DNA of 64,000 nt. It comes from Alphaproteobacteria bacterium. Lineage in GTDB: Bacteria > Pseudomonadota > Alphaproteobacteria > JABAAW01 > JAHZMA01. Each line of letters opens with the position of its first letter. Within the stretch, counting starts at the first letter, position 1. The stretch covers positions 141,144-205,143 of the forward strand of contig CBDBJL010000004.1 of assembly GCA_965206365.1 (NCBI GenBank). The letters run 5' to 3'. Both the position numbers and the translations under genes were made by a program. The notes beneath the pieces are model-generated. The model worked only from the letters and a program-made list of their open reading frames with translations. It did not search any database and had not been told where the DNA came from. Shown here piece after piece: positions 20 through 24,584 of this stretch.

Positions 20-697
20 GTGATCAAGGCTGTGCCATCATGTGGTTATCGAACAGATGGTGCTAGTCCTACGGGCCATGGATTAGTCCTGCTAGACGAT
101 GGATCGATCTGGACAGCAGGTTATAACGGCTATGGACAGCTAGGTCATGGTGATACGACCAACCGCACCAGTTTTACCCAAATCACGAGCTCAGAGAGCT
201 TCACCGATATTTTTGCAGGTGATGGGCGCTACCCATCCTCTGGTGGAATCACCGATCAGGGCGAAGTTTATCTTTGGGGCAATAATGGTTACGGCCAGCT
301 GGGTACTGGAAACACGACCAACCAGCTTTCCCCATTCAAACCAAATGGCAGTTTTCAAGGCAATGTATCCCGCGTCCGAATAGGCGGTGGGGCAAGCTAC
401 GAAGGCGTCATCGTTCAATCTGGTGATGAGCTCTGGGCCGCTGGTTATTCCGGTAATGCCAATATCGGCATTAATTCCACCGCAGGCACAAACAACACAT
501 TTCAGCGGGTTCTTGGGCAATCCGGGATTATCGAAGATTGGGATTGCTTTGGGCAAGGCACATCTGCATGGGGGCTTGGCGTTTTGTATGACGATGGTCG
601 TGTTGATGCCTGTGGGGAGAATAATTCCTACGGTGAGACCGGCACGCAAAGCAGCAACCTGCACGATGTCAAAACTCTCAAAAACGTAATTTTCTAG
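20..697 (+). CDS. RCC1-repeat protein (phage tail fibre-like), probably 5'-truncated by the window edge
   Basis: Repeated GYNGYGQLG(H/T)G motifs typical of RCC1 beta-propeller blades; the reading frame stays open back to base 2, so the gene likely starts upstream of the window. Confidence 0.6.
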   Translation: MIKAVPSCGYRTDGASPTGHGLVLLDDGSIWTAGYNGYGQLGHGDTTNRTSFTQITSSESFTDIFAGDGRYPSSGGITDQGEVYLWGNNGYGQLGTGNTTNQLSPFKPNGSFQGNVSRVRIGGGASYEGVIVQSGDELWAAGYSGNANIGINSTAGTNNTFQRVLGQSGIIEDWDCFGQGTSAWGLGVLYDDGRVDACGENNSYGETGTQSSNLHDVKTLKNVIF

Positions 698-706
698 GAG
701 GCTTTT

Positions 707-1159
707 ATGAAACTCAAATCCTATTTGCATGATCGTGCGCCACACTTTGATGAAAGTGAAATCGCGCCCATTCATCTGGCTGATCTGAACGGACGGCATT
801 ATTACGCTTTTGCCGAAGATATCACCCCGCCATCCGGTGGCAAGACTGTCAGCGATGAGGAACTGGATGATGTTCTTTCAAACAGTCAGCTTATTCGCCA
901 GATCAAAGAAGAAGCTGGACGCCGCATCACCCAGATTGCGCCTGTGTGGAAGCAGCAAAATGCATTGGCTGATTTATATCTGCTCGGCGGACGCTCTGAT
1001 CTCACGGACGATGAACAAGCAACGCTGACAAAAGCGCAAGCGTTATTGACAGAGATCTCACGGCTGCGCTCACGATCTGATGCCATCGAAGCTTCTTTCT
1101 TGGAAGGCATGGCCGTCGATTACATCACAGATAAAGCGTGGGAGGATGAAGATGCCTGA
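707..1159 (+). CDS. hypothetical protein in tail module
   Basis: AGGAGG ribosome-binding site 8 nt upstream of the ATG; coiled C-terminus; sits between the fibre-like gene and tail-tip genes. Confidence 0.45.
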   Translation: MKLKSYLHDRAPHFDESEIAPIHLADLNGRHYYAFAEDITPPSGGKTVSDEELDDVLSNSQLIRQIKEEAGRRITQIAPVWKQQNALADLYLLGGRSDLTDDEQATLTKAQALLTEISRLRSRSDAIEASFLEGMAVDYITDKAWEDEDA

Positions 1160-1695
1160 TCCTACCTTGAATGCGGCGATTGCCGAAGCCTATGCTTCTG
1201 CACCCAGTGACATCGTGATTTTAAACACGCTGGAGCTTCGCCATCCTGATTTCACGGATGATGAAGGCCAGCCCATTGCTGTGCGATTGGTGCGGGATCA
1301 TCAAGACTTATCAGCCAAGCTGGAGGATACCGCGCCCTTAAACCCTGACGAATATGTCACCTTTATTGCCATGGGCTTTGATCTGGAGCTGCCGCCTGTC
1401 GATACATCACCAGTGCCGGAAATCACCGTCACTATTGATAATGTCAGTCGTGAGCTGATCAAGCATCTGGATGCCGCTGTTGAGAGCGCAGAAAAAATTG
1501 AGATCACGTATCGCCCGTATTTAAGCAATGATCTGTCCGGACCACAAAATGGACCCGCCGATCACGCTAATCTTGAGCGAAGTCGAAGCCGATGTCAGCC
1601 GCGTTGTTGGCCGCGCCCGCATGCTGGATATTGGCAATAAGAGCTTTCCGTCAGAAACCTACACCGCCACGCGCTTTCCGGGGCTAACCCGCTAA
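1152..1695 (+). CDS. tail-module protein with apparent +1 frameshift near 1555-1562
   Basis: ORF 1080..1640 (best start ATG 1152 after GGAGG) ends in Arg/Cys/Trp-rich junk; the +1 frame (1528..1695) continues with protein-like sequence (...DVSRVVGRARMLDIGNKSFPSETYTATRFPGLTR). Confidence 0.4.
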
Positions 1696-1714
1696 ATAAA
1701 ACAAAGGAAATACT

Positions 1715-2158
1715 ATGAATGAATTGACCCAGCAGCCAGATGGGCTGCACTGGGCGTGTCGCTATATTGGCTTGCCATGGCAGGCTGGTGCGAAAGGCCC
1801 AGATGTTTTTGATTGCTGGAGCCTCGTGGTTTGGGTGCAAAAGCATCATTTTGGCCGAAACCTGCCCGACATTCCTGTCGCTGAGGGGAATTTAAAGCGG
1901 TTGGCTTTGACCTTTCGAGACCACCCTGAGCGCAAACGCTGGCAGCTCACTGATACGCCAGAACAAGGTGATGCGGTGTTGATGCGCCAATCCCGCCATC
2001 CCATCCATGTGGGCATATGGATCATCATCAACCCCAGCGAACAAGGCGTTCTGCACTGTGTGAAGGGCAATGGTGTGGTGTTTCAAAATATGGTCAGCCT
2101 CAAACTCGCAGGCTGGCAAATTGAAGGGTTCTATCGGTTTCAGGGGGATGCCCGCTAA
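1715..2158 (+). CDS. NlpC/P60-family phage cell-wall peptidase (lambda gpK / GTA g13-like)
   Basis: Catalytic Cys in FDCWSLVVW and His in HVGIWI; approx. 147 aa as in the phage NlpC/P60 family; sits immediately upstream of the I/J gene. Confidence 0.65.
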   Translation: MNELTQQPDGLHWACRYIGLPWQAGAKGPDVFDCWSLVVWVQKHHFGRNLPDIPVAEGNLKRLALTFRDHPERKRWQLTDTPEQGDAVLMRQSRHPIHVGIWIIINPSEQGVLHCVKGNGVVFQNMVSLKLAGWQIEGFYRFQGDAR

Positions 2159-2185
2159 ACCAGTTTAATAAATGACGAGGTTCTC

Positions 2186-4456
2186 ATGTTTGCTTGCGTC
2201 CACATGCTTCACAATCCATTTATGCCAGCACGCGGACGCGATATTTTTGCGGTCGATCATCCCATCACCATTCGTGAATGGCTGGATGAAGCGGGCATCA
2301 CAGAATTTGAACGTCCTACCATTTGCCTATTCAATGGCGAAGCGGTGCTTCGAGATCAATGGAACAAGATCACCATTGGTCTGTCTGACATCGTCACCTT
2401 TATCACGCTCCCCCAAGGTGGCGGCGGTGGGGGTGGCAAGATTTTACGATCCGTCCTGACCATTGCTGTCATGGTTGCGGCCCCTTATGCCGGAGCTGCG
2501 CTTGCGGGGGCGATTGGTGTCACCAGCACTGTTGGAGTGGCCTTGGTTACCGCTGGTGTAGCACTGGCCGGAAGTGCGCTGTTGAATGTCTTGGTACCGC
2601 CACCTGTGCCATCAACGAGTTTGAATAGTGGCTTTGGTAATACACCAGCAGCTAGTCCGACATATTCATTGCAGGCACAGGGAAATCAGGCACGCTTAAG
2701 TCAACCCATCCCAGTGGTTTACGGTCGGCACATTGTCTATCCCGACTTGGCCGCAACGCCATATTCGCTCTATCAGAATAACGAGCAATATTTGCATCAG
2801 CTGCACTGCATTGGTCAGGGCGAATACGATCTGGAGCAGATCCGCATTGAGGATACGCCGATCAGCTCCTTTGAAGAGATTGACTATGAAATCGTGCAAC
2901 CCGGAGATGCCGTCACGCTATTTGATACGGATGTCGTCACTGCACCCGAGGTGGCAGGACAGGAATTACTCAGCACAGGTGATGGCGGTGATTGGGTTGG
3001 GCCTTTTGTGGCCAATCCTGCACAAACCAACTGCCACCAGATCAGTGTCGATATTGTCATGCCGCGCGGGGTCTATTACGCCAATGACAGTGGCAGCCTG
3101 AACAACCGAACGATCACATGGAAATTTGAAGCGCGTCAGATCAATGATGACGGCACAGCCATTGGCGCATGGCAAACATTGGGAAGTGAAACCCTAACGG
3201 CAGCCACCAATACGCCACAACGCATGACGTTTGATTATGCGATGGCGACCGGACGCTATGAAGTGCGGGCTCTGAGAACCGATGCCAAAGACACATCTGC
3301 CAGAGCTGGGCATGAGCTTCGCTGGGGCGGCTTGAAAGCTGTCTTGGATCAAACACCCGATTTCGGGGATGTCACGCTCATCGCCATGAAAATGCGAGCA
3401 ACAGATAATTTGTCTCAACGCTCATCACGGATGGTGAACTGCCTTGTCACGCGCAAATTGCCTATATGGGATGAAGCCACCGGATGGTCAGCCCCACAAG
3501 TCACGCGATCTATCGCATGGGCTCTCGCTGATATTGCTCGCAGTCAATATGGCGGCAAACTGGATGATAGCCGGATTGATCTGATGCAGCTCAAGGCGCT
3601 GGATGCCAATTGGCAATCTCGCGGCGATTATTTCGATGCGGTGTTTGATCAAACAGTCACGGTCTGGGAAGCATTGAGCCGAACGGCACGTTGTGGCCGC
3701 GCCGTGAGCTTCATGCAAAGCGGCACTGTTCGCTTTGTCAGAGATGAGCAACGCTTCATCCCTGTGGCCTTGTTCAGTCCTCGTAATATCGTGAAGAACA
3801 GTCTCAAAATCCAGTATTTGCTGGCCAGTGATGACACAGCGGATAGCGTCACAGTGGAGTATTTCTCAAAAGAGACATGGCAAACGGCAGAAGAAACCGT
3901 CAGCCTGCCTGATAGCACCAGCGATCAACCTGCCCGGGTGCGATTGTTTGGCTGCACTGAAAAAGCCCAAGCCATCCGCGAAGGCAAATATATGGCCGCC
4001 GCCAATCGTTATCGCAGGCGCTTGGTGACCTTTCAAACAGAGCTGGAAGGTTTGATCCCTACTTACGGTGATCTGATCGCCATTGCCCATGATATGCCAA
4101 GCTGGGGCCAAGGTGCCGAGGTTATTGAGGTTGATGACAATGTTCTGAGCTTATCTGAGCCATTGGAATGGTCCGAGGAGCTTGGGGATCACTTTATCAG
4201 CCTGCGTAAAGCTGATGGCAGTGTTTCTGGTCCATGGTTTGTTCTACCCGGTGAGACGCCCAATCAGGTGGTTTTACAAGATGAGCTGGATTTTACGCCC
4301 TACACCGGAGAGCTGCAGGAGCGCACGCACATTGCCTTTGGCGCTGGTGAGAAATGGAGCACGCTGGCCCGCGTAACGGCTGTTAGGCCTCGGGGCGAGC
4401 TGGTTGAAATCAGCGCCGTTGCAGAAAACCCGGTTGTACATACCGCCGACCAATAA
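2186..4456 (+). CDS. fused tail assembly protein I (ubiquitin-like, Gly-rich tail) and host-specificity J-like protein
   Basis: N-terminal beta-grasp-like region ending in LPQGGGGGGGK, then a hydrophobic Ala/Gly segment as in lambda gpI; the rest is a long tail-tip J-like body. Confidence 0.55.
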   Translation: MFACVHMLHNPFMPARGRDIFAVDHPITIREWLDEAGITEFERPTICLFNGEAVLRDQWNKITIGLSDIVTFITLPQGGGGGGGKILRSVLTIAVMVAAPYAGAALAGAIGVTSTVGVALVTAGVALAGSALLNVLVPPPVPSTSLNSGFGNTPAASPTYSLQAQGNQARLSQPIPVVYGRHIVYPDLAATPYSLYQNNEQYLHQLHCIGQGEYDLEQIRIEDTPISSFEEIDYEIVQPGDAVTLFDTDVVTAPEVAGQELLSTGDGGDWVGPFVANPAQTNCHQISVDIVMPRGVYYANDSGSLNNRTITWKFEARQINDDGTAIGAWQTLGSETLTAATNTPQRMTFDYAMATGRYEVRALRTDAKDTSARAGHELRWGGLKAVLDQTPDFGDVTLIAMKMRATDNLSQRSSRMVNCLVTRKLPIWDEATGWSAPQVTRSIAWALADIARSQYGGKLDDSRIDLMQLKALDANWQSRGDYFDAVFDQTVTVWEALSRTARCGRAVSFMQSGTVRFVRDEQRFIPVALFSPRNIVKNSLKIQYLLASDDTADSVTVEYFSKETWQTAEETVSLPDSTSDQPARVRLFGCTEKAQAIREGKYMAAANRYRRRLVTFQTELEGLIPTYGDLIAIAHDMPSWGQGAEVIEVDDNVLSLSEPLEWSEELGDHFISLRKADGSVSGPWFVLPGETPNQVVLQDELDFTPYTGELQERTHIAFGAGEKWSTLARVTAVRPRGELVEISAVAENPVVHTADQ

Positions 4457-4480
4457 CCTTTAAAAACAGGAAGAATAATC

Positions 4481-4774
4481 ATGACCGCTGATAGCCATCA
4501 GCGGCAGGACGATATGGTGTGCCTGCCGCGTACAGAATTTGAGTCTCTGCTGGAGCAAGCTGCCTGCCGAGGGGCCAGAAAAGCCCTGAAGGAAGTTGGC
4601 TTGGCAGATGAAGAAGCCGCTCACGACATCCGTGATTTACGTGATCTGGCAGGCTCAATCAAAACCATGCAACGCACCTTTCTGCAAACCATCGTGCGCT
4701 GGATCACCATTGGTCTTCTGGCGCTCTTGGTCGCAGGTGTGGCTGCAAAAATTGGACCCTTCACCCCCAAATAA
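4481..4774 (+). CDS. small protein with C-terminal transmembrane helix
   Basis: GGA SD-like motif upstream; C-terminal hydrophobic helix (ITIGLLALLVAGVAA). Confidence 0.35.
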   Translation: MTADSHQRQDDMVCLPRTEFESLLEQAACRGARKALKEVGLADEEAAHDIRDLRDLAGSIKTMQRTFLQTIVRWITIGLLALLVAGVAAKIGPFTPK

Positions 4775-4788
4775 ATAGGAGAAAAACT

Positions 4789-5247
4789 ATGCTGACATTA
4801 CTTGGAAGCCTGCTGGGCTTTTTATCATCCGCATTCCCGGATTTTTTGAAACTCTGGCGCGATCATGCCGACCGCAAACATGAGCTGGCCATTCTGGATC
4901 GACAAATGGAGGCGCAACGCCAAGGCCACACACAACGCCTTGAAGAAATACATGTGCAGGCCGATGTGGCTGAAAGCAAGGCGCTCTATGCCCATGCCAG
5001 CCAGCCCAGCGGCGTAAAATGGGTGGAAGCGTTGCGGGCATCGGTACGTCCGATTATCACCTATGCATTCTTCATTCTGTTCGCCACCGTCAAAACCGCA
5101 GCGCTGTTCAAGCTACTGGATCAGGGTGTCGGTATTACCGACGGACTGATTGCCGTGTGGGATGGCGAAACGCAGGCATTATTTGCAGCGGTTATGTCCT
5201 TCTGGTTTGGGCAGCGCGCCTTAGCCAAATTCCGCTCAAACCCTTGA
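4789..5247 (+). CDS. membrane protein, holin-like candidate
   Basis: N-terminal transmembrane helix, coiled segment, then two C-terminal transmembrane helices; lies between the tail-tip genes and the endolysin. Confidence 0.35.
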   Translation: MLTLLGSLLGFLSSAFPDFLKLWRDHADRKHELAILDRQMEAQRQGHTQRLEEIHVQADVAESKALYAHASQPSGVKWVEALRASVRPIITYAFFILFATVKTAALFKLLDQGVGITDGLIAVWDGETQALFAAVMSFWFGQRALAKFRSNP

Positions 5248-5334
5248 AAAACATGATCTTATTCACTTGATAAGCGCTCGGAATGAAGCGTTACTGTAAG
5301 TGTAAAAAGCAATTGAAAACAAGGAGATAACACT

Positions 5335-5631
5335 ATGAGCAAACTATTTTACAAGGCCATGATTGAAGACATCCAAAACGAAAAATGCACCGACGCAGAG
5401 CTGGAAGCGCTGCTAAATGCCTTTGAGTACACAGTCAAGAAAATGGCCACCACGCTGGCCCGTAAAGCTTGGTACACGCTGGAAGATTACGCCACTGCCA
5501 AACAATACGGCATCGACCGCTTTACGCTGATGATTGAGCGCAAAGAAGTCCTTGGGCAAGAGCAATGGCATGGTGTTTTTGAATATGGCAGCAAGAACCT
5601 CAAAGTTATAGGAACACTGGAAAAGGATTAA
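5335..5631 (+). CDS. hypothetical protein
   Basis: AGGAGA RBS at 5321-5326; no recognised domain. Confidence 0.4.
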   Translation: MSKLFYKAMIEDIQNEKCTDAELEALLNAFEYTVKKMATTLARKAWYTLEDYATAKQYGIDRFTLMIERKEVLGQEQWHGVFEYGSKNLKVIGTLEKD

Positions 5632-6581
5632 TCCTGCTCTGTATTCATGTCCCAGTCAGACTGACGTATCTCGCCTGTTTGATAAAACTGACGGATTAAC
5701 TTGATATATTGCAAGAAGTCTTTGTTTTCTTCCGTCAACCTGTTCGCCGTATCCCAATCAATTTCGGTGCGTTCCTTGGCAGGAATCATGATTTGGCTTT
5801 CAGATGGGTTTTCAGCGTCCAGTCGAATAAAGCCAATGCCATGAAGGCTGGCAAGCATCCTAAGCTCTTTCAAGGTATCAGCACCTTCGATTTCGCTGGC
5901 AACTAAATAGCCGAAGTTTGCCCATGAAGAGTTGCTTACGGCTTGGAAAAAGACTTCGCGTACGTTTGAGCGATTGATTAATATCTTAACCTCAAACGAC
6001 CATAGTTTAGTTTTCTTATCAGCATATTGCTGCACGCAGTCTTTTATTTCACGGTGCCAATCGCAACTGAGGTCTTCCATGCCGACAAGATCAGGGTAAA
6101 GCCACTTATTACCACCTGCGCCTCTGGAATTGCGGGATCGCTTTTCATCAATTCTTTTGCTGTAAAGCTCAAGCTCTGACCAGAGAAACTCTGACAGGAT
6201 GGGGTAAAGGTCATGTTCTTTTACTACAGATCCGTTCGCTTTTGTGGCGGGTGAAGGCTCATGACTCTCAGCATGGTCAATCTCAGCACTGTCAGTTGAT
6301 TCAGTGAAATAGTACTTTCGAGGGCGGCCTTCTGTGGTTTTAACTTCGGGATGGCGCTTCTGCAGTCGTGGACGTTGTGAACCAATTTCAGCAACGATTT
6401 GCTGCAGCAATGCTGTTTCATTGTCGAGCGGATTAACGGTAGCTGTTGAGCGCTTTTGTTTTTGGCGGCATTCATCTGGATAGGTTTCAAATATCCAATT
6501 GGCAATTTCCCGAGCGGTAAATTTTTGCTCTGGGTTCTGCTGTAAAAATTCAGCGACAGTGTTCGCCAAGTTTAGCGCCAT
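5628..6581 (-). CDS. winged-HTH plus PD-(D/E)xK-like nuclease-fold protein (restriction-endonuclease-like cargo gene)
   Basis: N-terminal wHTH-like segment (FTAREIANWIFETYPDE); central YPDLVG...SFEVKI resembling a PD-(D/E)xK core; antisense to the flanking phage genes. Confidence 0.45.
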   Translation of the reverse strand: MALNLANTVAEFLQQNPEQKFTAREIANWIFETYPDECRQKQKRSTATVNPLDNETALLQQIVAEIGSQRPRLQKRHPEVKTTEGRPRKYYFTESTDSAEIDHAESHEPSPATKANGSVVKEHDLYPILSEFLWSELELYSKRIDEKRSRNSRGAGGNKWLYPDLVGMEDLSCDWHREIKDCVQQYADKKTKLWSFEVKILINRSNVREVFFQAVSNSSWANFGYLVASEIEGADTLKELRMLASLHGIGFIRLDAENPSESQIMIPAKERTEIDWDTANRLTEENKDFLQYIKLIRQFYQTGEIRQSDWDMNTEQD

Positions 6582-6655
6582 TATTCATTCTCTTTCATTT
6601 TCGTACTCACAGATATTACCAAGATTTACCAATTTCACAAGAAAAGAGGAGAAAA

Positions 6656-7102
6656 ATGAGACACATCACACAAAACGGATTGGACCTGATCAAACGGTTC
6701 GAGGGCTTCTCTCGGACCGTTTATTTTTGTCCGGCTGGTTATCCCACCATTGGCTATGGTCACGTTGTCAAAGATGATGAGGACTTTTCATCGGGTATTG
6801 ATGAAGCACAGGCTGAGGAGCTTTTGCGGCAAGATGCTCAGATTGCAGAGCGTGCCGTCCTGCGCCTGATTAACGTCCCGCTGACAGACGGTCAGTTCGA
6901 TGCACTGGTGTCTTTTACCTATAATCTGGGCGGTGGTGCGCTCCAGCGTTCCACACTGCGCCGTAAAATCAACCGCGAGGAACACGCCGAAGTGCCAGAA
7001 CAATTCATGCGCTGGGTCTGGGCTGGTGGCCGTAAGCTCAAAGGGCTGGTTCGACGACGGGCTGCTGAAAGCGATTTATATCAGTATTCCCAGTTTTCAT
7101 GA
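6656..7102 (+). CDS. GH24 lysozyme (phage endolysin)
   Basis: FEGF...TIGYGH signature of T4/P22-type lysozymes; AGGAG RBS. Confidence 0.8.
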   Translation: MRHITQNGLDLIKRFEGFSRTVYFCPAGYPTIGYGHVVKDDEDFSSGIDEAQAEELLRQDAQIAERAVLRLINVPLTDGQFDALVSFTYNLGGGALQRSTLRRKINREEHAEVPEQFMRWVWAGGRKLKGLVRRRAAESDLYQYSQFS

Positions 7103-7809
7103 GCTAAAGGAGATCTGTTCAAATCATCTCTGAAAGTTCTCCATTGGGGCATAATGCGATCCATATGAGCTATAAAGTTATCATTGTGTGTGCGCTCTAG
7201 AAAATGGACCATTTCATAAACGACAATATACTCAAGGCAGTTAATTGGTTTTTTGATAAGCTCCAAGTTAAGCCATATTCTTTTATGGCTGGGGTTACAG
7301 CTACCCCATTTTGTTTTCATCCTTTTAATGCCGAATGAATCCACCTGTAAACCAGACTTAATTTCCCATTTTCGAACAATGCCGGGGAGTATTCTTTTCA
7401 TTTCCTTACGGTACCAATCCGTAAGCAATTTTTCTCGATCCTCGAGTTCGGTGTCTCTATTGATATTTAACACCAGCGTTTTTTTATTTCGGATTTCAAT
7501 AAAGGGACGTTTTTCAGTCTCAGCAATATCTAATAAGTATCTACGGCCAAGATAGTAATGACTTTCCCCAGTAATGAGCTCTCTGGCACTCTGGCGGGGT
7601 TGATCTTCAAAAGATTTTATTTGGCGCTTAATCCACCCGAATTTCGATATGACGGCTAATCTAACAGCCTCATCGTCAACAATTTCTGGAACAGCAATTC
7701 TGACCCATCCATTAGGTGGGTAAACAGCCAAGTGAAGGTTTTTTATTTTCTTTCGGATAACCTTCACAGGCAGTTCATTTACAGTAATTGTGCTTTCATT
7801 AGTACTCAC
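7081..7809 (-). CDS. M48/DUF45-family zinc metallopeptidase (YgjP-like, type I R-M associated)
   Basis: HExxH motif in YEMVHFLERTHN; 242 aa; immediately downstream of hsdR. Confidence 0.75.
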   Translation of the reverse strand: MSTNESTITVNELPVKVIRKKIKNLHLAVYPPNGWVRIAVPEIVDDEAVRLAVISKFGWIKRQIKSFEDQPRQSARELITGESHYYLGRRYLLDIAETEKRPFIEIRNKKTLVLNINRDTELEDREKLLTDWYRKEMKRILPGIVRKWEIKSGLQVDSFGIKRMKTKWGSCNPSHKRIWLNLELIKKPINCLEYIVVYEMVHFLERTHNDNFIAHMDRIMPQWRTFRDDLNRSPLAHENWEY

Positions 7810-10800
7810 TTTGATTTTTCACCAGTTCAAGTATTTGTTTCGCGTCATAGTCAGTAACGCTCAGAACAGAACGAATAGCCAGTTCTATTTCGCGTTCTTT
7901 GAACCTATTTCCACGAAAGCCGTCCTTCTTGGTAGCTCTAACAATTTTATCCACTTCAATGGCAAGATTCTCATCCTTTCCTAAATTGTCGTAGAGTGCT
8001 CTTTTGGCCGCAGAGTTCAAGGATTTTGGATAAGAGCTGTTTGTTTCTGGTCTTGAAACCTTTCCAGACAAATCAATAATCTTTTTCAGATAATCCTTAT
8101 ATTTAAGTGCCTGATCTTTACGCTCTTGAATGAGTGCATCAAGAAGCTCGGACATCTTTTCGTAGTATTTTGGGTTAACAGGCTGTTCATCAATGATGAC
8201 TTTTCGAATGTTATTTTCGATGGTTTCGGCAATAGCTTCCTCGTTGTTACGAATTCCTTCGGGTAGTTCTTTGATTGCATCTTCTCCGCGCTCAACAATA
8301 AGCTGGATAAGGCTGAGATCATCGAAAGCTGATATCTTTTGGCTTTCTTCTGCTCGGATATATGAATCAATCAAATGACGCATTGAAGGCTCGTAGACCT
8401 TCATGTCGATATAATCACCACTGGCCATTTTGACTTCAGTTCGAACAGATTCATAATGCTGCACTTCCGCCTTAATCTCTTCAATTTCTTCAGGCGAGTA
8501 GCCAGCATCAGCCATTTCATTTGCCAGAGCGGCATATGCGCGAATGAATGAACCACTTTCCTTGTACAATGCTAATCTACGCGGTTCGTTGTCCTTCAAA
8601 GCATCTTTGTCAGATGTATCCAGTGCACAGAAATATTGAATATACGCAGCAGTGTCTTTTGGTGTGCCAACATTTTCACAAAGAGCTTTTACGGTTTCGC
8701 GTGTTTCATCCAAGCGTTCTCTGGCTTTGATAAGACGATCTTCAAGTAGGCCAGCAACGTCCTCTTTGTCGTATTTATCAAATGCACCGCAAGTATAGTC
8801 TTGAATAGAGCTTTCCAAGCTGTTGAACAAATCCTTGTAGTCAATAATGTATCCGTATTCTTTATCCTCACCATCCAAGCGGTTTACGCGACAAATAGCT
8901 TGGAAAAGGCCATGATCTTGCATCTTTTTATCGATATAGAGATAGGTGGCAGATGGCGCATCAAATCCCGTTAGCAATTTATCGACTACAATCAGCAGAC
9001 GCATTTGTCCGGGTTCATCTACGAATTTTTCTTTAACTTTCTTCTCGAACTCATCAGCACGATTTACGGCCTGATCAGCAGGCTCGTCAAAGAAGTTAGC
9101 CAGCATTTTACGGTAGATATCATACTGGTGCAGTCTTTCGGTATACCCTGCGCCACTTTCTTCATTTTTAATATCTTGTGGTGATGGTTTGTAGGAGGTC
9201 ACAATCGCGCATTTGCCAGAAAGGTCTGTCTTATCAAAAAGCTCAAAGAATTTGCATGCTTGATAAATACTGCCAGAAACCAGAATTGCGTTACCACGGC
9301 CATCTGCAAGCCGATCCCGCGTTTCCATATCCAGCAAAATATCCGCAACAATATTTTCCAGACGTGATTGAGAGCTGAGAACCTTTTGCATGGTTCCCCA
9401 TTTCTTTTTCAATTGTGCCCGGGCGAAATCATTGAGACCTTTTGTCTTTGCCTCAAACCACAGATCAATTTTGTCCTGAGAGGTAATGTTCTGGTCAATG
9501 TCACGCGCCTCATAGCGCAAGTCGAGTACAACGCCGTCCTTAACGGCCTCATCAAATTTGTATGTATGAATGTAAGGCCCGAAAACTTCGAGGCTGGTTT
9601 GCTTATCATCCTTGAGCAAAGGTGTACCTGTAAAACCGATAAATAAGGCATTCGGCAAGATCTTCTTCATGGCCGTATGTAGCTTGCCGGACTGCGTACG
9701 GTGACATTCATCTACAAACACATAGATGTCACCCTTTGCCTCAAAGTTGGACATCATATTCTTCTGAATTTCAGCCAAGAACTTGTCGACATCTTCATCA
9801 GACAATTCATCATTATCTGAGCCGCCAAATTTATGGACAAGCGAACACATCAGCCACTGATCGGTTCCATTCAGCGTATGAACAAGATCAGAGCCACTGG
9901 TGGTGCGATAAATATCCTCATCGACACCGCGATAAACTTTCTCTATTTGTTCGTCCAGTTCGGTACGATCGGTGATAATTAGAACGCGAGAGTCCTTCAC
10001 GTTCTCACGTATCCATTTTGTGAGCCACACCATGGTCAGGCTTTTGCCCGAACCTTGCGTATGCCAGATGATCCCGCCCTGGCGACGGCGAATATGATCC
10101 TGCGCTTCCTTGATCCCAAAATATTGGTTCTGGCGGCAAGTCTTTTTTACACCTGCATCAAAAACGATGAAGTCATGTATTAGCTCAAGTAAACGATGTT
10201 TCTCGCACATAATTGAGAGGTGCCGATCCAGTTTATAGTCACCAATGCCACCGTCTTCTTTCCATTCCAGATAATACTTCTCGCTGGTCTCAATGGTGCC
10301 GTACCGCAAGCCTTGCGTATCATTTCCAGCCATCACTAATTGCATGGTGGTGAAGAATGGACGGATGAAGTCTTTTCGCTGATTAAGCAGATTCTGGCGA
10401 ATGCCTTCAGTAAGGCCAATGATGGAGCGTTTTAGCTCAACCACACCAATGGCTATACCGTTAAGATACAGCACTACATCCGGACGTTTGGTGTTGTTAC
10501 CTTTGACGGTGACTTCCTCAGCAATTGCAAAATCATTCTTTTCTGGTTCAGTCCAGTTGATAAGCCAAACAGTTTGATTTTGCTCGCCAGCGCCTTCCTT
10601 AACCTTGATGCCATAACGCAGCAGACGGTAAACGTCTTTGTTGGCGTCATAGAGGCTACGCCCATCGCCCAGTGCTGCAGCCTGATCTAACTCATGTAAA
10701 GCACGTTCAATGAGTTTGTCGCTGTAGCCTTGCTTTTGCAGAAATGCCTTTAACAGGCTTGGCTCTATGTTCTTATTCTCGCGGTCCTTCCGATCCCCAA

Positions 10801-10885
10801 GATAATCATACCCAAGTTGATCTTTGAACAACTTAACGATGCGGTTTTGCGTAACGCGCTCTATGGCTCCAACTTTACTCATCAT
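7799..10885 (-). CDS. hsdR: type I restriction enzyme R subunit
   Basis: SF2 helicase motifs (GSGKSLTMVWL, DECHRTQSG) and HsdR N-terminal region; ORF is open to 11002 but the likely start is MMSKVG at about 10885, overlapping the dinD stop. Confidence 0.9.
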   Translation of the reverse strand: MMSKVGAIERVTQNRIVKLFKDQLGYDYLGDRKDRENKNIEPSLLKAFLQKQGYSDKLIERALHELDQAAALGDGRSLYDANKDVYRLLRYGIKVKEGAGEQNQTVWLINWTEPEKNDFAIAEEVTVKGNNTKRPDVVLYLNGIAIGVVELKRSIIGLTEGIRQNLLNQRKDFIRPFFTTMQLVMAGNDTQGLRYGTIETSEKYYLEWKEDGGIGDYKLDRHLSIMCEKHRLLELIHDFIVFDAGVKKTCRQNQYFGIKEAQDHIRRRQGGIIWHTQGSGKSLTMVWLTKWIRENVKDSRVLIITDRTELDEQIEKVYRGVDEDIYRTTSGSDLVHTLNGTDQWLMCSLVHKFGGSDNDELSDEDVDKFLAEIQKNMMSNFEAKGDIYVFVDECHRTQSGKLHTAMKKILPNALFIGFTGTPLLKDDKQTSLEVFGPYIHTYKFDEAVKDGVVLDLRYEARDIDQNITSQDKIDLWFEAKTKGLNDFARAQLKKKWGTMQKVLSSQSRLENIVADILLDMETRDRLADGRGNAILVSGSIYQACKFFELFDKTDLSGKCAIVTSYKPSPQDIKNEESGAGYTERLHQYDIYRKMLANFFDEPADQAVNRADEFEKKVKEKFVDEPGQMRLLIVVDKLLTGFDAPSATYLYIDKKMQDHGLFQAICRVNRLDGEDKEYGYIIDYKDLFNSLESSIQDYTCGAFDKYDKEDVAGLLEDRLIKARERLDETRETVKALCENVGTPKDTAAYIQYFCALDTSDKDALKDNEPRRLALYKESGSFIRAYAALANEMADAGYSPEEIEEIKAEVQHYESVRTEVKMASGDYIDMKVYEPSMRHLIDSYIRAEESQKISAFDDLSLIQLIVERGEDAIKELPEGIRNNEEAIAETIENNIRKVIIDEQPVNPKYYEKMSELLDALIQERKDQALKYKDYLKKIIDLSGKVSRPETNSSYPKSLNSAAKRALYDNLGKDENLAIEVDKIVRATKKDGFRGNRFKEREIELAIRSVLSVTDYDAKQILELVKNQSEY

Positions 10886-11726
10886 TACTGTCCAAACTGT
10901 CTGGTGATTTAAGTGCTTTCTTCTCCTGCGAGGCAATACGACGCTCAAGCTTCTTGATATCTTCTGCAGGTGGTAAGGATTCTGGCCGGATACCACGTTC
11001 AATCAAAGTCTTACGAACAGCCTGATTATTGGTGACATGCTCACCGGATATCTGTGCTTCGGTACTCATATTATTTTCACGGGCGTTATGGATGGTAATT
11101 TCCGTCGCAAAGTCTTTCGCTTTTAGGATAATGGTTGACGCAAAATCGGCCAGTGGGCGACTATTAGGCACTTTCCACTGCGCCTTCATCTGCTGGGTGC
11201 TTTTGCCACACAACGCTTGGTCCCCCTTGCTGCGAATAATACCGAAATTGCGATCTTGACCTGTTTGCTCGTATATCACCTCTGATAGCTCTTTTTCTGT
11301 TTGGGTCAGCTTTTTGCGCGCAGAAAGACGCTCTTGTTCCAGAATGCGCTGCTCAATCAGCTCAGCCCTGCGGGTTTGCATGGCAAAATAGGTCTGAGCA
11401 AAGGCTATCTGTTCTTTTCTTGGGTCGCCGTTCTGAGCAATGAGATAGCAAGCGTAACGGGTAAGCATAACATCATCTATCTCTCGCTTACCGCCGGAAC
11501 CAAGATCGACCATTTTGCCGACGTCAGCAAAATGGTCAGAGACCTCATGCCCGCTGACCTCACAGGCCACTTTGGCCTTCGAGATCACCTGAGCAAAGTT
11601 TCGCCACTGGTCATATCCCAGAAGATGCTGCAAATCACGGGCAAGCCAGTATTCCACTTCACCCTCAGTTTGCTGGGCATGAAGCTCAAAATTATCTGTT
11701 AGTGTGGTAATGAGCTCTTTTTTCAT
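10875..11726 (-). CDS. dinD: DNA-damage-inducible protein D-like (Bro-N domain)
   Basis: Matches DinD from recalled sequence (EYWLARDL..L.Y..WRNF..V..A...C..SGH..SDHF....KMV.LGSG..RE..DV.L.RYACYL..QNGDP); inserted between hsdS and hsdR. Confidence 0.7.
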   Translation of the reverse strand: MKKELITTLTDNFELHAQQTEGEVEYWLARDLQHLLGYDQWRNFAQVISKAKVACEVSGHEVSDHFADVGKMVDLGSGGKREIDDVMLTRYACYLIAQNGDPRKEQIAFAQTYFAMQTRRAELIEQRILEQERLSARKKLTQTEKELSEVIYEQTGQDRNFGIIRSKGDQALCGKSTQQMKAQWKVPNSRPLADFASTIILKAKDFATEITIHNARENNMSTEAQISGEHVTNNQAVRKTLIERGIRPESLPPAEDIKKLERRIASQEKKALKSPDSLDSNDE

Positions 11727-13034
11727 GCCGCCTCCTGCTTTTTGTCGGTTTTGGTTAATCGTGTTTTGCCTGTCAAAAGCTCCTGCATCATGCCTGTCTT
11801 GAGGCTGAGGGCCTTGGCAAGGCGCTGCTCAAGCGCGTCAATTTCAGCATCCATGTCAGACAAGATATTAGAAATCGCGGTTTGCTCATCTTTATCAGGA
11901 AACTTGAATTCCATTGATTCAACTGATTTTGGTGTCAAATTATTAATGCTGGAACCAGCTAAAAGGACATCAATTTGTTTTCTGCAATAATCTGAATTGA
12001 GAAGATAAAAAATAAATTTTGGAATGGATTTTTTAAGGTCGGTGCGAAAGCACCCCATAAAAGCGCCAAATGTAAATTTATTGCTCTTGTTGTCAGAAAA
12101 AATAGCGGATTTTCCAATTAATTTTTTACTTCCATTTGCCATACATATGACAATGTCATTTTCATTTAAATATTGCTCGGTTGATACACATCCCCTCTTT
12201 ACAAACTGAACATCTGAAAAGTTTACTCTTGCAAATTTAATATTGTTAGACCGCAATAAGTATGGCTGCGTCATTATTGTCAGATGCAAATAGATCTGTC
12301 GCTCCACTGTAACTCACACCGCGCAAACAACTGCCAAATTCACCTAATTGAAACTCTTTCCATTCTTCATCAAACCCCGGAAGGCGTTTTTTGCCTGTAA
12401 GGAGCTCTTGCATGGCGGCGGTTTTCATGTCGTGTTTTTTGACGATCAGCTTCTCAAGGCTTTTAATCAGTCCATCCACATCTGACAGTGCTGCCGCAAT
12501 CTGCTTTTGCTCTTCAGGCTTGGGAAGAGGCAATACTATGGATGAAAGCAGCCGTCCATTTGTTAACGCCCTAGTTGTATAGGTACTTTTGGAAGTTATC
12601 TGTTTTCTTACTTCATCAGAGGAAAAACAGTATTTGCAATAATCCTCTTCAATTGACTTGGATTTGGGGCGACCACGCAATACAAAGCCACTAAATACTG
12701 TTTCATTGCAATCGTCCAACATCACAGATGCAACACCAATATCTTCAACAGTTTCAGATGTCCGTGTAAAAAAAACATCTCCTTTTTTGACCGAAAAGTT
12801 TTGCTTTTCTTGAAACGTTACATCAACTTTTCCCTGAAGATTATTGAGCCTCAAGCCTGAAAAATTAAAAACGTCCATATAGTTAACAATAGGCGTTCCG
12901 TAACCAAAGAATTCTTTGGCTTTATTTAAACCATTCTTAAACTCAAAAAGATCACCAATTAGAGCTTCATCCCAATCCTCTGGGATAACGCCGATGTCTG
13001 TTTGTTTATATCCTGCCTTCATATCTGCCATCAC
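11723..13034 (-). pseudogene. hsdS: type I R-M specificity subunit, disrupted by a frameshift between 12246 and about 12330
   Basis: ORF 12246..13034 holds TRD1, the central conserved repeat and the start of TRD2; ORF 11723..12307 in another frame holds the rest of TRD2 and the C-terminal conserved region (LKTGMMQELLTGKTRL). Confidence 0.7.
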
Positions 13035-15514
13035 CAGCTTAACCCCATCTTTTTCAAATGCTCTTCCACGCGGTCGGAGTAATCTGAAACCTGCTTGGTC
13101 AGTTCCGGCATGGGGTGGGCATAGCGTTCTTCAAGCTCTTTCACGCGGTTCGCCAAAACTTGCGTTACACGTTCCACCTCTGCCGCTACATCTGCACTAA
13201 GGCGGTCAAACCATTTGTCGATGACAACCAATTCCTTAATCTCGTCAACATCAAGTTTGGCGTAATGCGATACGGTTTTCTTATCGAGTTCGAGCTGCTG
13301 CACCTTTATCTTCGAGGCCAGCGCACTTTCTTGATCCAGCAGTTTCTGCGCTTGTTTCAGGACGACCATTTCATCCTCAAGGTCTTCATCGCCTTTAATT
13401 TCTTTCATACGATCCTTGAGGCTGGTTTTCGTAAGCTTGCCTTTATCATTTTTCGCATCTTCCAGCAGACCTTCTTCGCCACTGTGCTCTTCGGTCAGCT
13501 CTTCAATTTCCCCTGCAACGGTCTCACGCTGTGCTTCAAGCCCATCAATGGCCTGCTTCTCATCCGCAAAATAGCGCTGCACAATTAAGGCAGGTGGGAT
13601 CAGCTCAGCTTTGAATTTTTGAGCCTTTTTGCCTGTGCCGACAACGATGTCTGGTGTTTCTTTGACTTTTTTGTCCTTGTCTTTTTCATCAATGATCAAG
13701 CGTATTTGCGCTGCGTCTTTCCAACCTTCACCGGAGATTTGATAAACATCATCCTGCATGACCTCAGACCAGTAATTCATTAAATGCTGGTACACATCGT
13801 ATTTATCGATCAGTGGAATATTTGAGAAAGTGGAAAGCAAGTCCTCTGAAATTTCCCAGATCACATCCTTTGGCTTGCAGTCTTGTTCGAGTGATTTTAG
13901 ATATGGCTCGTACTTATCTTTCCAACCTGTCAGGGTTTCTTCGGCCTTTTTGGCATATGCCTGATATTCAGCTGAATCCAGTATGGTGGATTTGACTTGA
14001 TCGCTTGGCACGCGGGCAATGAGATAATCTGGGCTGCCATTTTGTTTGAAGAGTGCTTCGCGGGTTGCTGTAAATACATTCCAGTAACGCTGGAGTTCAT
14101 CAACATCACGTTTTGGAATGCCACCCTTTAAATGCGCTGTTAGATCATGGATGTCCGCTTCATCACCGCTATCAATATAGCGCGGCAGATTAAGGTTATA
14201 GTCATTTTTCGGATCTGATATTTCGGAGACAGGTACCAAGCGGGAGAAGCCTTCGATTTCTAACCCCTTATTGAAAACATCAACAATTTTGTGAATGTCT
14301 TGGGAGCGAAGGCGGTTCTTATTACCATCTTTGATAAAGCCCTTACTCGCATCAATCATAAAGATGCCTTTGCGGGACGCGGCATGTTCTTTGTCTAGCA
14401 CAATAATACAGGCTGGAATGCCTGTGCCGTAAAACAAGTTTGCGGGCAGGCCTATCACACCTTTGATATAACCACGCTTCACCACTTCTTTACGGATGGT
14501 GGCTTCCGCGTTCCCACGGAACAATACGCCGTGTGGAAGAATGACAGCGCCTTTACCAGTGCTTTTCAACGAACGGACAATGTGCAGCAAAAAGGCATAA
14601 TCGCCATTCTTCGATGGGGGCACGCCATAATCAAAACGGCCATATAAGTCGGTGATGGTCTTTTTCTTCTCGTCCTTGGCAAAACCGTTTTGCCATGATT
14701 TGGTTGAGAATGGAGGGTTGGCGACCACAAAATCAAATGTTTTCAGCTCAGATGCAGATGGTGCAAATGCTGGGGCAGATAGAGTGCTGCTCCCACCCGC
14801 TTCAATTTCAGCGGTCGGGTTGTCATGCAAGATCATGTTCATTTTTGCCAGCGCGGTAGTGGCAACATCTTTTTCCTGACCGTAAATAGACATACCACTT
14901 GGCGATTCATCAGCTGCTTTCAACAACAATGAGCCAGAGCCACATGTGGGGTCGTAAACTGTTTGGTCTTGGCGCGTTTCTTTACCGATGCCGATGACTT
15001 TGGCCATGATACGGGAAACTTCGGCAGGCGTATAAAACTGCCCTTTGCTTTTACCGCTTTCCGTTGCGAAGTGGCGCATCAGATATTCATAGGCATCCCC
15101 GAGGAGGTCGTCGCCTTCTGCGCGATTGCTACGGAAATCCAGATCATTAAAAATCGATACCAGCTTTGACAGCCGGTCCTGCATTTCCTTACCTTTGCCA
15201 AGTTTGTCTTCGTCATTGAAATCGGCAACATCAATCACACCCTTGAGACCATTGGCTTCGGCAAGTTTGCCGATGGCTTTGTTAATTTTATCACCGATCT
15301 CTTTATCGCCTTTGAGGGCAACCAAATCAGCGAAGCCACCGCCTTCTGGAATTTCAATCAATGAGTTTGGCTTGCCTGCGTATTTGTCAGACACATATTT
15401 TACGAAGAGCAATGTCAGTACATAGTCTTTGTACTGTGAGGCATCCATCCCGCCACGCAGTTCGTCGCAACTTTTCCAGAGTGAGCTGTATAACGCTGAT
15501 TTTTTAATTGCCAT
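13031..15514 (-). CDS. hsdM: type I R-M N6-adenine methyltransferase subunit, long form with coiled-coil C-terminal extension
   Basis: HsdM N-terminal region, NPPF catalytic motif (VVANPPFS) and an approx. 300-aa charged coiled-coil C-terminus; probable start is the internal Met (ORF open to 15547); ATGA overlap with hsdS. Confidence 0.9.
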   Translation of the reverse strand: MAIKKSALYSSLWKSCDELRGGMDASQYKDYVLTLLFVKYVSDKYAGKPNSLIEIPEGGGFADLVALKGDKEIGDKINKAIGKLAEANGLKGVIDVADFNDEDKLGKGKEMQDRLSKLVSIFNDLDFRSNRAEGDDLLGDAYEYLMRHFATESGKSKGQFYTPAEVSRIMAKVIGIGKETRQDQTVYDPTCGSGSLLLKAADESPSGMSIYGQEKDVATTALAKMNMILHDNPTAEIEAGGSSTLSAPAFAPSASELKTFDFVVANPPFSTKSWQNGFAKDEKKKTITDLYGRFDYGVPPSKNGDYAFLLHIVRSLKSTGKGAVILPHGVLFRGNAEATIRKEVVKRGYIKGVIGLPANLFYGTGIPACIIVLDKEHAASRKGIFMIDASKGFIKDGNKNRLRSQDIHKIVDVFNKGLEIEGFSRLVPVSEISDPKNDYNLNLPRYIDSGDEADIHDLTAHLKGGIPKRDVDELQRYWNVFTATREALFKQNGSPDYLIARVPSDQVKSTILDSAEYQAYAKKAEETLTGWKDKYEPYLKSLEQDCKPKDVIWEISEDLLSTFSNIPLIDKYDVYQHLMNYWSEVMQDDVYQISGEGWKDAAQIRLIIDEKDKDKKVKETPDIVVGTGKKAQKFKAELIPPALIVQRYFADEKQAIDGLEAQRETVAGEIEELTEEHSGEEGLLEDAKNDKGKLTKTSLKDRMKEIKGDEDLEDEMVVLKQAQKLLDQESALASKIKVQQLELDKKTVSHYAKLDVDEIKELVVIDKWFDRLSADVAAEVERVTQVLANRVKELEERYAHPMPELTKQVSDYSDRVEEHLKKMGLSW

Positions 15515-15704
15515 CGTTTTTGTCCTCGCCTTTTTGTTCTTGCTCACTGATCCAGCGGTCTACCTCGCTTTTGCGAAACCGCCACGCGCTTCCCACTTTG
15601 AAGCCCGGAACCTTGCCCTCAGATGCAAATCGATAGGCCGTCTTCTCAGCAATCTTGAGGTAATCGGCGAGTTCCTTCACGGTCATAATGTCATCATTAG
15701 TCAT
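15504..15704 (-). CDS. AlpA/excisionase-family HTH DNA-binding protein
   Basis: 66 aa with MerR/AlpA-like HTH (TVKELADYLKIAEKTAYRFASEGKVPGFKVGSAWRF); heads the hsdM operon. Confidence 0.65.
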   Translation of the reverse strand: MTNDDIMTVKELADYLKIAEKTAYRFASEGKVPGFKVGSAWRFRKSEVDRWISEQEQKGEDKNDGN

Positions 15705-15802
15705 ATTTTTTTGTCCCTTGAGGTATCATAGGATTGAAAATAGTGGAAATTGAGTGAACAATCAAGTAAGTTATCGAGGAAATCAAATTATAAGACAGGG
15801 TT

Positions 15803-16834
15803 ATGCAGCAATACGGTAACGATAAGATTCTCTACTCACCATCGGACTTGGTCACCTTTTTAGGGTGTCACCATGCGAGCTTCCTTGATGTGAAGGCGCT
15901 GAGTGAGAGCATGGATAAGGCCGAGGCCAGCACCACAGGCCAACTATTGCAGCAAAAAGGCTTGGAGCATGAGGCGGCGTATCTCCAACAACTCAAAGAC
16001 GAAGGTAAGTCCGTCGTTGAAATCCCCAAAGACCGCAATTTGCAAGACCGCGCCCAGCTCACATTAGAGGCCATGCAGTCCGGTGCGGATGTCATTTATC
16101 AGGCCGTATTCTTTGCCCCGCCATGGCGAGGAGATGCCGATTTTCTGATTAAGTGCACTACGCCGTCCGACTTGGGTGATTTCAGCTATGAGGTGCTGGA
16201 TACCAAACTGGCACAAACAGCTGAGCCCAAGCATATCATGCAGCTTTGTGTCTATTCTGAGCTGCTGACTTACCTTCAGGGATTGCGCCCAGCTGATATG
16301 CATTTGTTTCTGGGCGATCATGAAAAACACAGCTTCCGCGTGGCAGACTTTTTCTATTACTACACCCGCGCTAAAGGCCGCTTTGAAACCTATCTGAAAA
16401 GCATGCCAGCAGACTCATATCCTGAGCCTTGCGGTCATTGTAATTTCTGTCCATGGCGCGAGGGCTGCAAAGCGCAGTGGGAACAAGATGATCATTTAAG
16501 CCTTGTGGCCAACATCCAACGCTCACAGATGGATAAGCTGCGGAAAGCTGGCATCTGCACCGTTGCGGAGCTTGCTGCCACAGCGCCTGACACCAAAATT
16601 CCTGATTTGAGCCGTGATGTGTTTTTACGCCTGCGTTCACAAGCCGTCCTGCAACATCACAAAGCCACCACGGGTGAAAATAAATGCGAGATCATTCCGT
16701 TCCCGCCGGGCAAAGGCTTTACCCGTATGCCAGTGCCTGATGATGGTGATCTGTTCTTTGATATGGAGGGCGATCCGCTTTACCCAAATGGTTTGGAATA
16801 TTTGTTTGGGGTCTATTATCGGAACGCGCCGTAA
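15803..16834 (+). pseudogene. N-terminal fragment of a RecB/Cas4-like (TM0106-family) nuclease-helicase gene, interrupted by an IS
   Basis: PD-(D/E)xK RecB-like region with Cys cluster (CGHCNFCPWREGC); reading frame terminated by IS605-family end sequence. Confidence 0.7.
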
Positions 16835-23224: not shown

Positions 23225-23430
23225 TGCGTTTCCTATGAATCCCAAACAGGGATTCGAACCCACGTTTGGTACGGTACTTTTGCCACGATGATTGAAGTCA
23301 TGCCAAGAGCAGAAATCAAAGCAGCATAAGGTGTTGCAACATAAAACTTGCTTTTCGTTGTTTTCAGGGCAATTATTTGTTGCAACACTATGGTAGGTGT
23401 AGAGGATTCGAACTCAAAGGGGTTCAATAC

Positions 23431-24454: not shown

Positions 24455-24528
24455 GGTCTCGTAGCTCATCAGGATAGAGCGCCAGATTCCTAATCTGGAG
24501 GTAACAGGTTCGAGTCCTGTCGAGATCG
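24455..24528 (+). tRNA. tRNA-Arg (anticodon CCT)
   Basis: Hand-folded cloverleaf: acceptor ggtctcg/cgagatc, D-arm gctc/gagc, anticodon stem ccaga/tctgg with loop ttCCTaa, T-arm acagg-ttcgagt-cctgt, discriminator G; CCA not encoded. Confidence 0.85.
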
Positions 24529-24584
24529 CCCCTTTTATCTCATTCCCAAGAAAAACCCGCTTTTATGCCTAACGAATATTGCTC

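Follow-up and report, generated by a model that had tools for sequence, protein, structure and literature searches.

Introduction

What would a gene that reads against its neighbors be doing inside a phage lysis cassette? The question is raised by a 64,000-nucleotide stretch of alphaproteobacterial DNA (contig CBDBJL010000004.1 of GenBank assembly GCA_965206365.1, positions 141,144 to 205,143; this whole stretch is referred to as the window), in which all genes from position 20 to 5631, and also the lysozyme gene, lie on the plus strand, and in which this tail-to-endolysin array is broken by a minus-strand open reading frame (ORF) of 317 codons at 5628-6581. The initial annotation of this ORF gave the protein a winged-helix-like N-terminus and a PD-(D/E)XK-like nuclease core, and took the gene for restriction-like or abortive-infection cargo of a kind typical of prophages (a moron); its coordinates, its strand and its arrangement with the neighboring genes, convergent on one side and divergent on the other, are as described there. 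Here we report that sequence comparison places the encoded protein in the HrgA/COG2958 (DUF511) family, and that the characteristic company of HrgA is type I restriction-modification (R-M) and bacteriophage exclusion (BREX) operons, not phage genomes. We consider it roughly an even bet, with a probability of about 0.5, that HrgA is an autonomous defense endonuclease which reads the state of DNA through its winged helix and acts alongside immunity based on adenine methylation.

Results

An intact gene assigned to the HrgA family

The window protein has 4127 homologues in the database (best E 2e-207), clustering at 50% identity gave 1598 clusters, and the possibility of a chance ORF can therefore be dismissed. 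Its close relatives keep the start methionine and the full length, and the ORF is an intact conserved gene, far beyond anything expected of a chance reading frame. Exact-sequence look-ups of the window protein and of one relative (P0015) returned no match. Some of the homologues, from Bartonella, Legionella, Nitrosococcus and other genera, carry the names 'HrgA protein' or 'COG2958 family protein', and some plasmid records are also annotated as HrgA. A BLASTP comparison with a Helicobacter plasmid HrgA, annotated by the Prokaryotic Genome Annotation Pipeline, gave 31% identity over 226 amino acids (E 7e-33), with the N-terminal 80 residues lying outside the alignment; the two proteins have the motifs WLYPDxVG, SFExK and RExFFQAxSNSSWAN in common. 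The Pfam model of the family, PF04373, was matched neither by the window protein nor by 96 family representatives, and not even by the named Helicobacter HrgA; this result is uninformative, as the model is apparently missing from the copy of Pfam that was used.

Structure prediction confirmed the winged helix that the initial annotation had suspected at the N-terminus. In an AlphaFold2 model computed from 69 close homologues (74-92% identical), the predicted local distance difference test (pLDDT) score per block of ten residues was 83-94 over residues 1-40 and 73-88 over residues 41-100, and the top Foldseek matches of this domain in the Protein Data Bank (PDB) were the winged helices of forkhead, Fur, BlaI and Z-alpha proteins, with modest E-values (best 0.022). 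Pfam gave only weak, sub-threshold matches in this part of the window protein (DUF7669 and Forkhead). Distant Clostridium and Leptospira plasmid members of the family (L086, 6800-7726; L088, 6797-7726) pass the Pfam threshold for HARE-HTH (E 3e-11), and 2 of the 96 representatives have a weak match to the same domain. One variant of 439 amino acids (P0259) has an additional N-terminal Mrr_N domain (E 1e-23) and a PADLOC match to type IV restriction endonucleases. It has been proposed that HARE-HTH domains, which are linked in operons to N6-adenine methyltransferases, read modified DNA, and this proposal has been partly tested: the HARE-HTH domain of ASXL1 bound N6-methyladenine (6mA) DNA in vitro, whereas other authors favor cytosine modifications.

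The C-terminal half carries a putative nuclease motif, PD...(D/E)xK, whose presence was confirmed across the family. It consists of YPDLVG at residues 162-167 and SFEVK at residues 195-199 of the window protein, with the codons for P163-D164 at 6090-6095 and those for E197-V-K199 at 5985-5993. Among the 96 representatives, which are 35-57% identical to the window protein, no substitution occurs at D164, K199, Q213, N217 or W220, and conservation at P163 and E197 is 90% or higher; the PD...ExK motif is the best conserved part of the family. No Pfam match to Mrr_N or Mrr_cat was found in the window protein.

This domain architecture is not new. The prediction of Laganeckas et al. (2011) for DUF511, whose type is HrgA of Helicobacter pylori, comprised a winged helix at the N-terminus, with the N-terminal domain of RpoE-delta as its nearest match, together with a canonical PD-(D/E)XK domain, and assigned no function; their PD-(D/E)XK assignment rests on a support vector machine and on COMA (E 0.002 to 3dnx). 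Steczkiewicz et al. (2012) listed DUF511/PF04373 and COG2958 as a PD-(D/E)XK group, likewise of unassigned function and with evident horizontal transfer. With the combination of winged helix and PD-(D/E)XK domain predicted in 2011-2012, what is new here is the genomic setting.

HrgA genes accompany type I R-M and BREX operons

We compared 80 genome loci whose HrgA proteins are 62-100% identical, using clustering of the neighboring genes and tblastn. These loci cover the Alpha-, Beta- and Gammaproteobacteria, the Spirochaetia, the Myxococcales, the Flavobacteriaceae and the Acidobacteriota. A type I R-M system (39 loci) or a type 1 BREX system (6 loci) lay within 10 kb of HrgA in 45 of the 80. 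HrgA was the next gene on the same strand after hsdR, a YgjP gene, a pair of SLATT and SMODS genes, or BrxL at about 25 of 78 loci, with gaps of 2-54 bp or with overlaps that arise from over-extended ORF starts. The same company was seen among plasmid homologues that are 45% identical. On a Vibrio plasmid the order is hsdR, SprT and then HrgA; a Proteus plasmid has HrgA sandwiched between hsdS and hsdR, with a 1-nt overlap of the hsdS stop and the HrgA start; and on a Shewanella plasmid the order is hsdS, an AAA ATPase, a TPR protein, HrgA and hsdR. On the Proteus and Shewanella plasmids hsdR starts 16-17 nt after HrgA. The neighbors of the distant Clostridium member are a WYL gene, an ATPase, two methyltransferases and a restriction endonuclease.

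A tblastn search of HrgA against 50,697 phage genomes gave zero matches. The view of the gene as prophage cargo holds for its location, inside a prophage-like module, on the opposite strand and in a defense island of low GC content at the end of that module. Its absence from those phage genomes means that the label of a 'typical' phage moron does not apply; for abortive-infection cargo we found nothing specific in favor. In some close relatives HrgA is intact while the lysozyme gene adjoining it upstream is reduced to a fragment, which indicates that HrgA outlives the prophage. Neither R-M or BREX nor the gene o98 described below was found near HrgA in 26 of the 80 loci, and of the 31 closest relatives, those with 72% identity or more, 24 had no R-M or BREX within 10 kb.

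Some of these operons have further features. The SLATT gene (two transmembrane segments) and the SMODS nucleotidyltransferase gene stand as a pair between hsdR and HrgA in L048, L049, L054, L057-L060, L074 and L075 (at about 8600-10000), and in some operons of this and related types hsdM is often preceded by WYL (BrxR-like) and GmrSD (BrxU-like) genes. In L057, from a Limnobacter metagenome-assembled genome (MAG), HrgA (10001-10939) is split into ORFs of 128 and 179 amino acids, probably by a frameshift or as a pseudogene.

A candidate modification-reading nuclease

According to the reading that we prefer, HrgA would consist of two parts connected by a variable linker, a winged-helix DNA reader of the HARE type and a metal-dependent endonuclease domain of the PD-(D/E)XK type. 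The winged helix would read the state of the DNA, most plausibly a base modification, and would direct the nuclease to foreign DNA; HrgA would catch DNA that escapes the methylation-based system, much as Mrr or GmrSD/BrxU do beside R-M and BREX loci. What the data show is that the protein belongs to the family, has a winged-helix fold at its N-terminus, conserves the catalytic motif and keeps the genomic company described above; catalysis, the target and the role in defense are what we infer. In its favor, HrgA resembles Mrr in combining predicted reader and nuclease domains in one polypeptide and in being able to exist without a cognate methyltransferase (the 26 solitary loci above), and its company in the window includes, besides type I R-M, a PD-(D/E)XK-like gene (orf343), a Mokosh-like helicase and GmrSD.

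Several observations weigh against this reading. The AlphaFold2 model falls to a pLDDT below 50 past residue 105, so that the C-terminal PD-(D/E)XK fold is unconfirmed, and sequence searches of the PDB, run both with the protein itself and with two profiles, returned nothing under E 0.5. An hhalign comparison of the C-terminal domain with 29 N-terminal nuclease domains of HsdR brought the D, the ExK and the following Q-helix into register, but at a non-significant P of 0.055, and the comparison with E. coli Mrr gave no signal (P 0.49). Of the nuclease core proposed in the initial annotation, the motif with its invariant D164 and K199 accordingly stands and the fold does not yet. HrgA also matched no family among the PADLOC, NCBIfam and PHROG models, and the literature searched contained no biochemical or genetic test of any member of the family. 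Simple N6-methyladenine (m6A)-dependent specificity is doubtful because the m6A methyltransferase gene that adjoins H. pylori hrgA is inactive only in some strains. Finally, the tight operon linkage to R-M could reflect a functional dependence on the R-M complex instead of an autonomous activity.

The last point leads to an alternative modeled on PrrC, in which HrgA would be a guardian of the R-M system and an abortive-infection effector, a toxic nuclease held inactive by the neighboring type I R-M or BREX complex and set free once an anti-restriction protein of a phage has disabled that complex. The Proteus and Shewanella plasmids do place HrgA in the position that prrC occupies in EcoprrI, between hsdS and hsdR, HrgA is the last gene of the R-M or BREX operon in many genome loci, and a review of R-M systems describes toxin-like accessory genes coupled to them along with the PrrC precedent. 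We nevertheless regard this alternative as rather improbable. The many solitary relatives, both among the closest ones and in the set as a whole, have no complex of this kind within 10 kb to restrain them, in the window itself a lysozyme gene stands between HrgA and the R-M operon, and no match to the ABC-ATPase-like or anticodon nuclease domains of PrrC and RloC was found in Pfam, NCBIfam or PADLOC; a winged-helix DNA reader would, moreover, suit a DNA target better than the sensing of a protein complex.

HrgA and o98 belong to a portable lysis block

HrgA converges on o98, the two genes having a TTAA in common at their stop codons, and it diverges from the lysozyme gene across a spacer of 74 bp. 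Comparisons by blastn indicated that these genes belong to a conserved block that begins with the DUF6127 gene: positions 4451-7080 of the window, from DUF6127 through lysozyme, are 89% identical to L003, and positions 5104-7069 are 98.98% identical to L002, a Kiloniella sp. MAG. In L003, L033 and L036 the block is preceded by P2-like gpU, gpX and gpD genes, compared with a J-like tail gene in the window, and the block can be described, on these alignments, as a mosaic module that has been joined to different tail types and to different type I R-M systems. An integration of the prophage into the 3' end of HrgA was considered and rejected, given that in the layout of the window the lysozyme gene lies on the other side of HrgA and that the block from DUF6127 to lysozyme moves as a whole.

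The junction between o98 and HrgA is tightly conserved and recurs widely. In 41 of the 80 loci, from several bacterial classes, o98 converges on HrgA, and in most ORF calls the spacing is -4 to +17 nt. Two gene orders were found, namely holin-o98-HrgA-lysozyme, as in the window, and holin-lysozyme-o98-HrgA; past o98 there follow lysozyme, holin and DUF6127 and then either P2-like gpD/gpX/gpU or a Phage-tail_3 host-specificity gene, and the holin-like gene itself is present in 20 of the 80 loci. The protein o98 has 118 homologues, and their alignment is typical of purifying selection. Its AlphaFold2 model has a pLDDT of 90.8 and the topology beta-alpha-beta-(alpha)-beta-beta-beta, for which the search for structural neighbors was uninformative and gave no recognizable inhibitor fold; no PADLOC, NCBIfam or PHROG family was matched. 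A Ralstonia prophage record has DUF6127, holin, lysozyme and o98 followed by host genes, without HrgA, and o98 occurs in 67 Ralstonia megaplasmids, of which the one inspected (L089) had no HrgA alongside. An obligatory antitoxin role of o98 was therefore rejected: since o98 occurs without HrgA in Ralstonia and HrgA without o98 in the plasmid R-M operons, the two are not obligate partners.

An elaboration of the preferred reading, which we think unlikely, would put HrgA in the service of adenine-methylation immunity (type I R-M and BREX) as its dedicated accessory effector. Its HARE domain would read the methylation marks placed by the adjoining methyltransferase, or detect that they are missing or changed on incoming DNA, and thereby license the nuclease; the o98/HrgA junction would mark a portable defense hotspot, closing a phage lysis cassette, at which temperate phages with different tails carry and swap R-M and BREX systems, and o98, expressed late, would modulate HrgA.

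The junction also bears on a second alternative, which we hold to be improbable, namely that HrgA and o98 form a unit on the side of the phage. The two could be a nuclease and its inhibitor, or an antisense pair switched by read-through from the late operon, and would serve the prophage by superinfection exclusion or by degrading the DNA of the host or of competitors at lysis, and would not be an accessory to the R-M system of the host. The overlapping or closely spaced stop codons in both gene orders would fit such a unit, as would the joint travel of the block with DUF6127, holin and lysozyme behind two tail types, and terminator-like sites for each strand are located within the opposite gene of the pair. 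This alternative is opposed by the failure to find HrgA among the phage genomes searched, by the independence of the two genes and by the absence of a recognizable inhibitor fold in o98.

The least probable alternative is a selfish or decayed element, either a free-standing, homing-like or addictive nuclease gene that would spread horizontally and collect in variable regions without a part in defense or a catalytically inert DNA-binding regulator. It could draw on the patchy spread of the gene, at 62-95% identity, over Alpha-, Beta- and Gammaproteobacteria, Spirochaetia, Flavobacteriaceae and Acidobacteriota, on the insertion sequence (IS) or transposon elements that often flank HrgA and on the non-essential hrgA of H. 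pylori, which swaps with a restriction gene by recombination. Against it, an inert regulator is contrary to the invariant or near-invariant catalytic residues, the recurrence of HrgA at the same place in R-M and BREX operons speaks for a selected co-function, and neither a target-site duplication nor a pattern of homing sites was observed.

The window HrgA flanks an R-M hotspot in a defense island

Beyond the lysozyme gene of the window lies a type I R-M cassette that is co-directional with HrgA and is separated from it by that plus-strand gene (Table 1). The last gene of the R-M operon, for a YgjP-like peptidase, overlaps the 3' end of the convergent lysozyme gene by 22 nt. The order hsdR, peptidase, HrgA recurs on the Vibrio plasmid (L082), and the Bro-N/PDC-S13 gene between hsdR and hsdS is a second accessory gene within the operon of the window. 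The two overlapping ORFs of hsdS reflect either a frameshift or two half-S genes, and the specificity of the R-M system may be altered or lost.

The flanks of this cassette, at about 7070 (the 3' end of the lysozyme gene) and at 15530-15803 (up to orf343, the far flank), are conserved in L002, L003, L004 and L012, whereas the cargo between them varies: the HsdR proteins are 27-29% identical, and L004 has a different system with a protein of 1836 amino acids. Because the flanks are conserved and the cargo differs, the alignments place the type I R-M system of the window in a swappable hotspot, with HrgA belonging to the conserved flank.

Farther on, IS605 TnpB and IS200 TnpA bracket a Mokosh-like helicase gene, and GmrSD follows. 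A tRNA-Arg(CCT) gene, with housekeeping genes beyond it, is the probable outer boundary of the island formed by the prophage and the defense genes, and HrgA thus stands at the junction between a prophage-like tail and lysis module and a defense island that ends at a tRNA gene. A search for attachment (att) repeats found no copy of the 3' end of tRNA-Arg within positions 1-25000. Upstream of this tRNA gene there are T-arm-like tRNA fragments (ggattcgaac), near 23250 and 23405, that ARAGORN did not call, and two copies of a 31-nt repeat, at 23445 and 24200; the fragments and the repeat are possibly att remnants of serial integrations.

On the other side, the plus-strand genes farther upstream of the lysis block encode an RCC1-repeat protein, a DUF1833 protein, a 147-residue ORF product (1715-2158) and the J-like tail protein (Phage-tail_3 and FNIII-A_GpJ domains); the RCC1-repeat gene (20-697, plus strand) lies inside the phage tail module. 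Near position 5250 the GC content steps down, its value being about 0.52 before and about 0.44 after this point.

Table 1. Features of the window around the HrgA-family gene (positions are those of the window).
Feature	Position	Strand	Description
HrgA/COG2958-family gene	5628..6581	minus	ATG-initiated ORF, 317 aa, assigned by sequence comparison
Winged-helix (HARE-HTH-type) domain, predicted	6282..6581	minus	residues ~1-100; AlphaFold2, Foldseek, Pfam in relatives
Nuclease-like domain, putative	5631..6221	minus	residues ~121-317; conserved motif, literature assignment
Portable conserved block (DUF6127, holin, o98, HrgA, lysozyme)	4451..7080	both	blastn; 2.6 kb
DUF6127 protein	4481..4774	plus	C-terminal transmembrane segment; Pfam DUF6127 E 1.5e-23; phrog_10540; first gene of block
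Holin-like protein	4789..5247	plus	three transmembrane segments; phrog_6637 E 8e-40; weak GTA_holin_3TM match
o98	5335..5631	plus	98-aa conserved protein, terminal gene of lysis cassette
Endolysin (Phage_lysozyme)	6656..7102	plus	Pfam PF00959 E 1.5e-43; phrog_7 endolysin
Type I R-M cassette	7081..15547	minus	YgjP-like peptidase, HsdR, Bro-N/PDC-S13, split HsdS, HsdM; Pfam, PADLOC
YgjP-like (SprT-like) metallopeptidase	7081-7809	minus	last gene of R-M operon
Bro-N gene	10875-11726	minus	PADLOC candidate PDC-S13, E 8.5e-118; between hsdR and hsdS
Split hsdS	11723-12307 and 12246-13034	minus	overlapping ORFs, 194 and 262 aa
orf343	15803-16834	plus	343 aa, no Pfam family; weak PADLOC DruK/Cas4 (PD-(D/E)XK) similarity, E 7e-6
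IS605 TnpB	17320-18489
RNase_H_2 + superfamily 1 (SF1) helicase gene	18446-20854		Mokosh MkoA/MkoC-like similarity
IS200 TnpA	20866-21300	minus
GmrSD type IV enzyme	21401-23224
tRNA-Arg(CCT)	24455-24530	plus	ARAGORN; housekeeping genes beyond

Discussion

HrgA/COG2958, known for some 20 years, is a large, horizontally mobile family, and the context described here suggests a role for it that can be tested. In the literature searched, no paper tied HrgA to type I R-M or BREX, and neither the systematic linkage to these operons nor the portable arrangement of lysis cassette and hotspot was found there. If HrgA is a modification-reading nuclease, it would add a class based on HARE-HTH to the type IV and accessory restriction enzymes, and bacterial HARE-HTH domains would gain their first functional readout; the eukaryotic counterparts of these domains, in ASXL proteins, are disputed 6mA sensors. 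Such an activity would also explain how hrgA can take the place of a restriction gene in H. pylori.

The closest comparison is with H. pylori HrgA itself (hpyIIIR-replacing gene A), which belongs to the same family, has about 320 residues with a predicted winged helix and PD-(D/E)XK domain, and lies beside an adenine-methylation system. It differs in its setting, replacing a type II restriction endonuclease next to M.HpyIII, whereas the window gene sits in a lysis cassette by a type I R-M hotspot. PrrC, from the type Ic system EcoprrI, is similar to the Proteus and Shewanella HrgA as a non-Hsd effector encoded between hsdS and hsdR. However, PrrC is an ABC-ATPase-like tRNA nuclease, in contrast to the winged helix and PD-(D/E)XK domain predicted for HrgA, and HrgA is often solitary and in the window lies outside the operon.

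BrxU and GmrSD share with the proposed role of HrgA that they are independent nucleases within methylation-based defense operons, and GmrSD homologues are found in HrgA operons and in the window. Their folds are unrelated to that predicted for HrgA (DUF262 and HNH-type), they are stimulated by nucleoside triphosphates and they have been validated by experiment, whereas HrgA is a predicted nuclease. The winged-helix fusion endonucleases studied by Helbrecht et al. (2024), which include DpnI-like, wH-HNH and wH-GIY-YIG proteins, likewise join a winged-helix sensor to a nuclease, mostly stand alone and occur in defense neighborhoods. The DpnI-type winged helix reads fully methylated ApT, while that of HrgA is of the HARE type, whose specificity is disputed, and HrgA was not among the families of that study.

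E. coli EcoKMrr offers a parallel in both architecture and location. It has about 300 residues, a winged-helix reader at the N-terminus and a nuclease of the PD-(D/E)XK type at the C-terminus, the arrangement predicted for HrgA, and it is autonomous and encoded directly beside hsdR of EcoKI in the hsdRMS immigration control region; the one HrgA-family variant with an added Mrr_N domain belongs beside this likeness. EcoKMrr has a (D)-QxK motif instead of the PD-ExK of HrgA, and a relationship between the two sequences was undetectable by hhalign. By analogy, then, HrgA would work most like the Mrr-type and winged-helix-fusion type IV enzymes, yet it stands outside those families.

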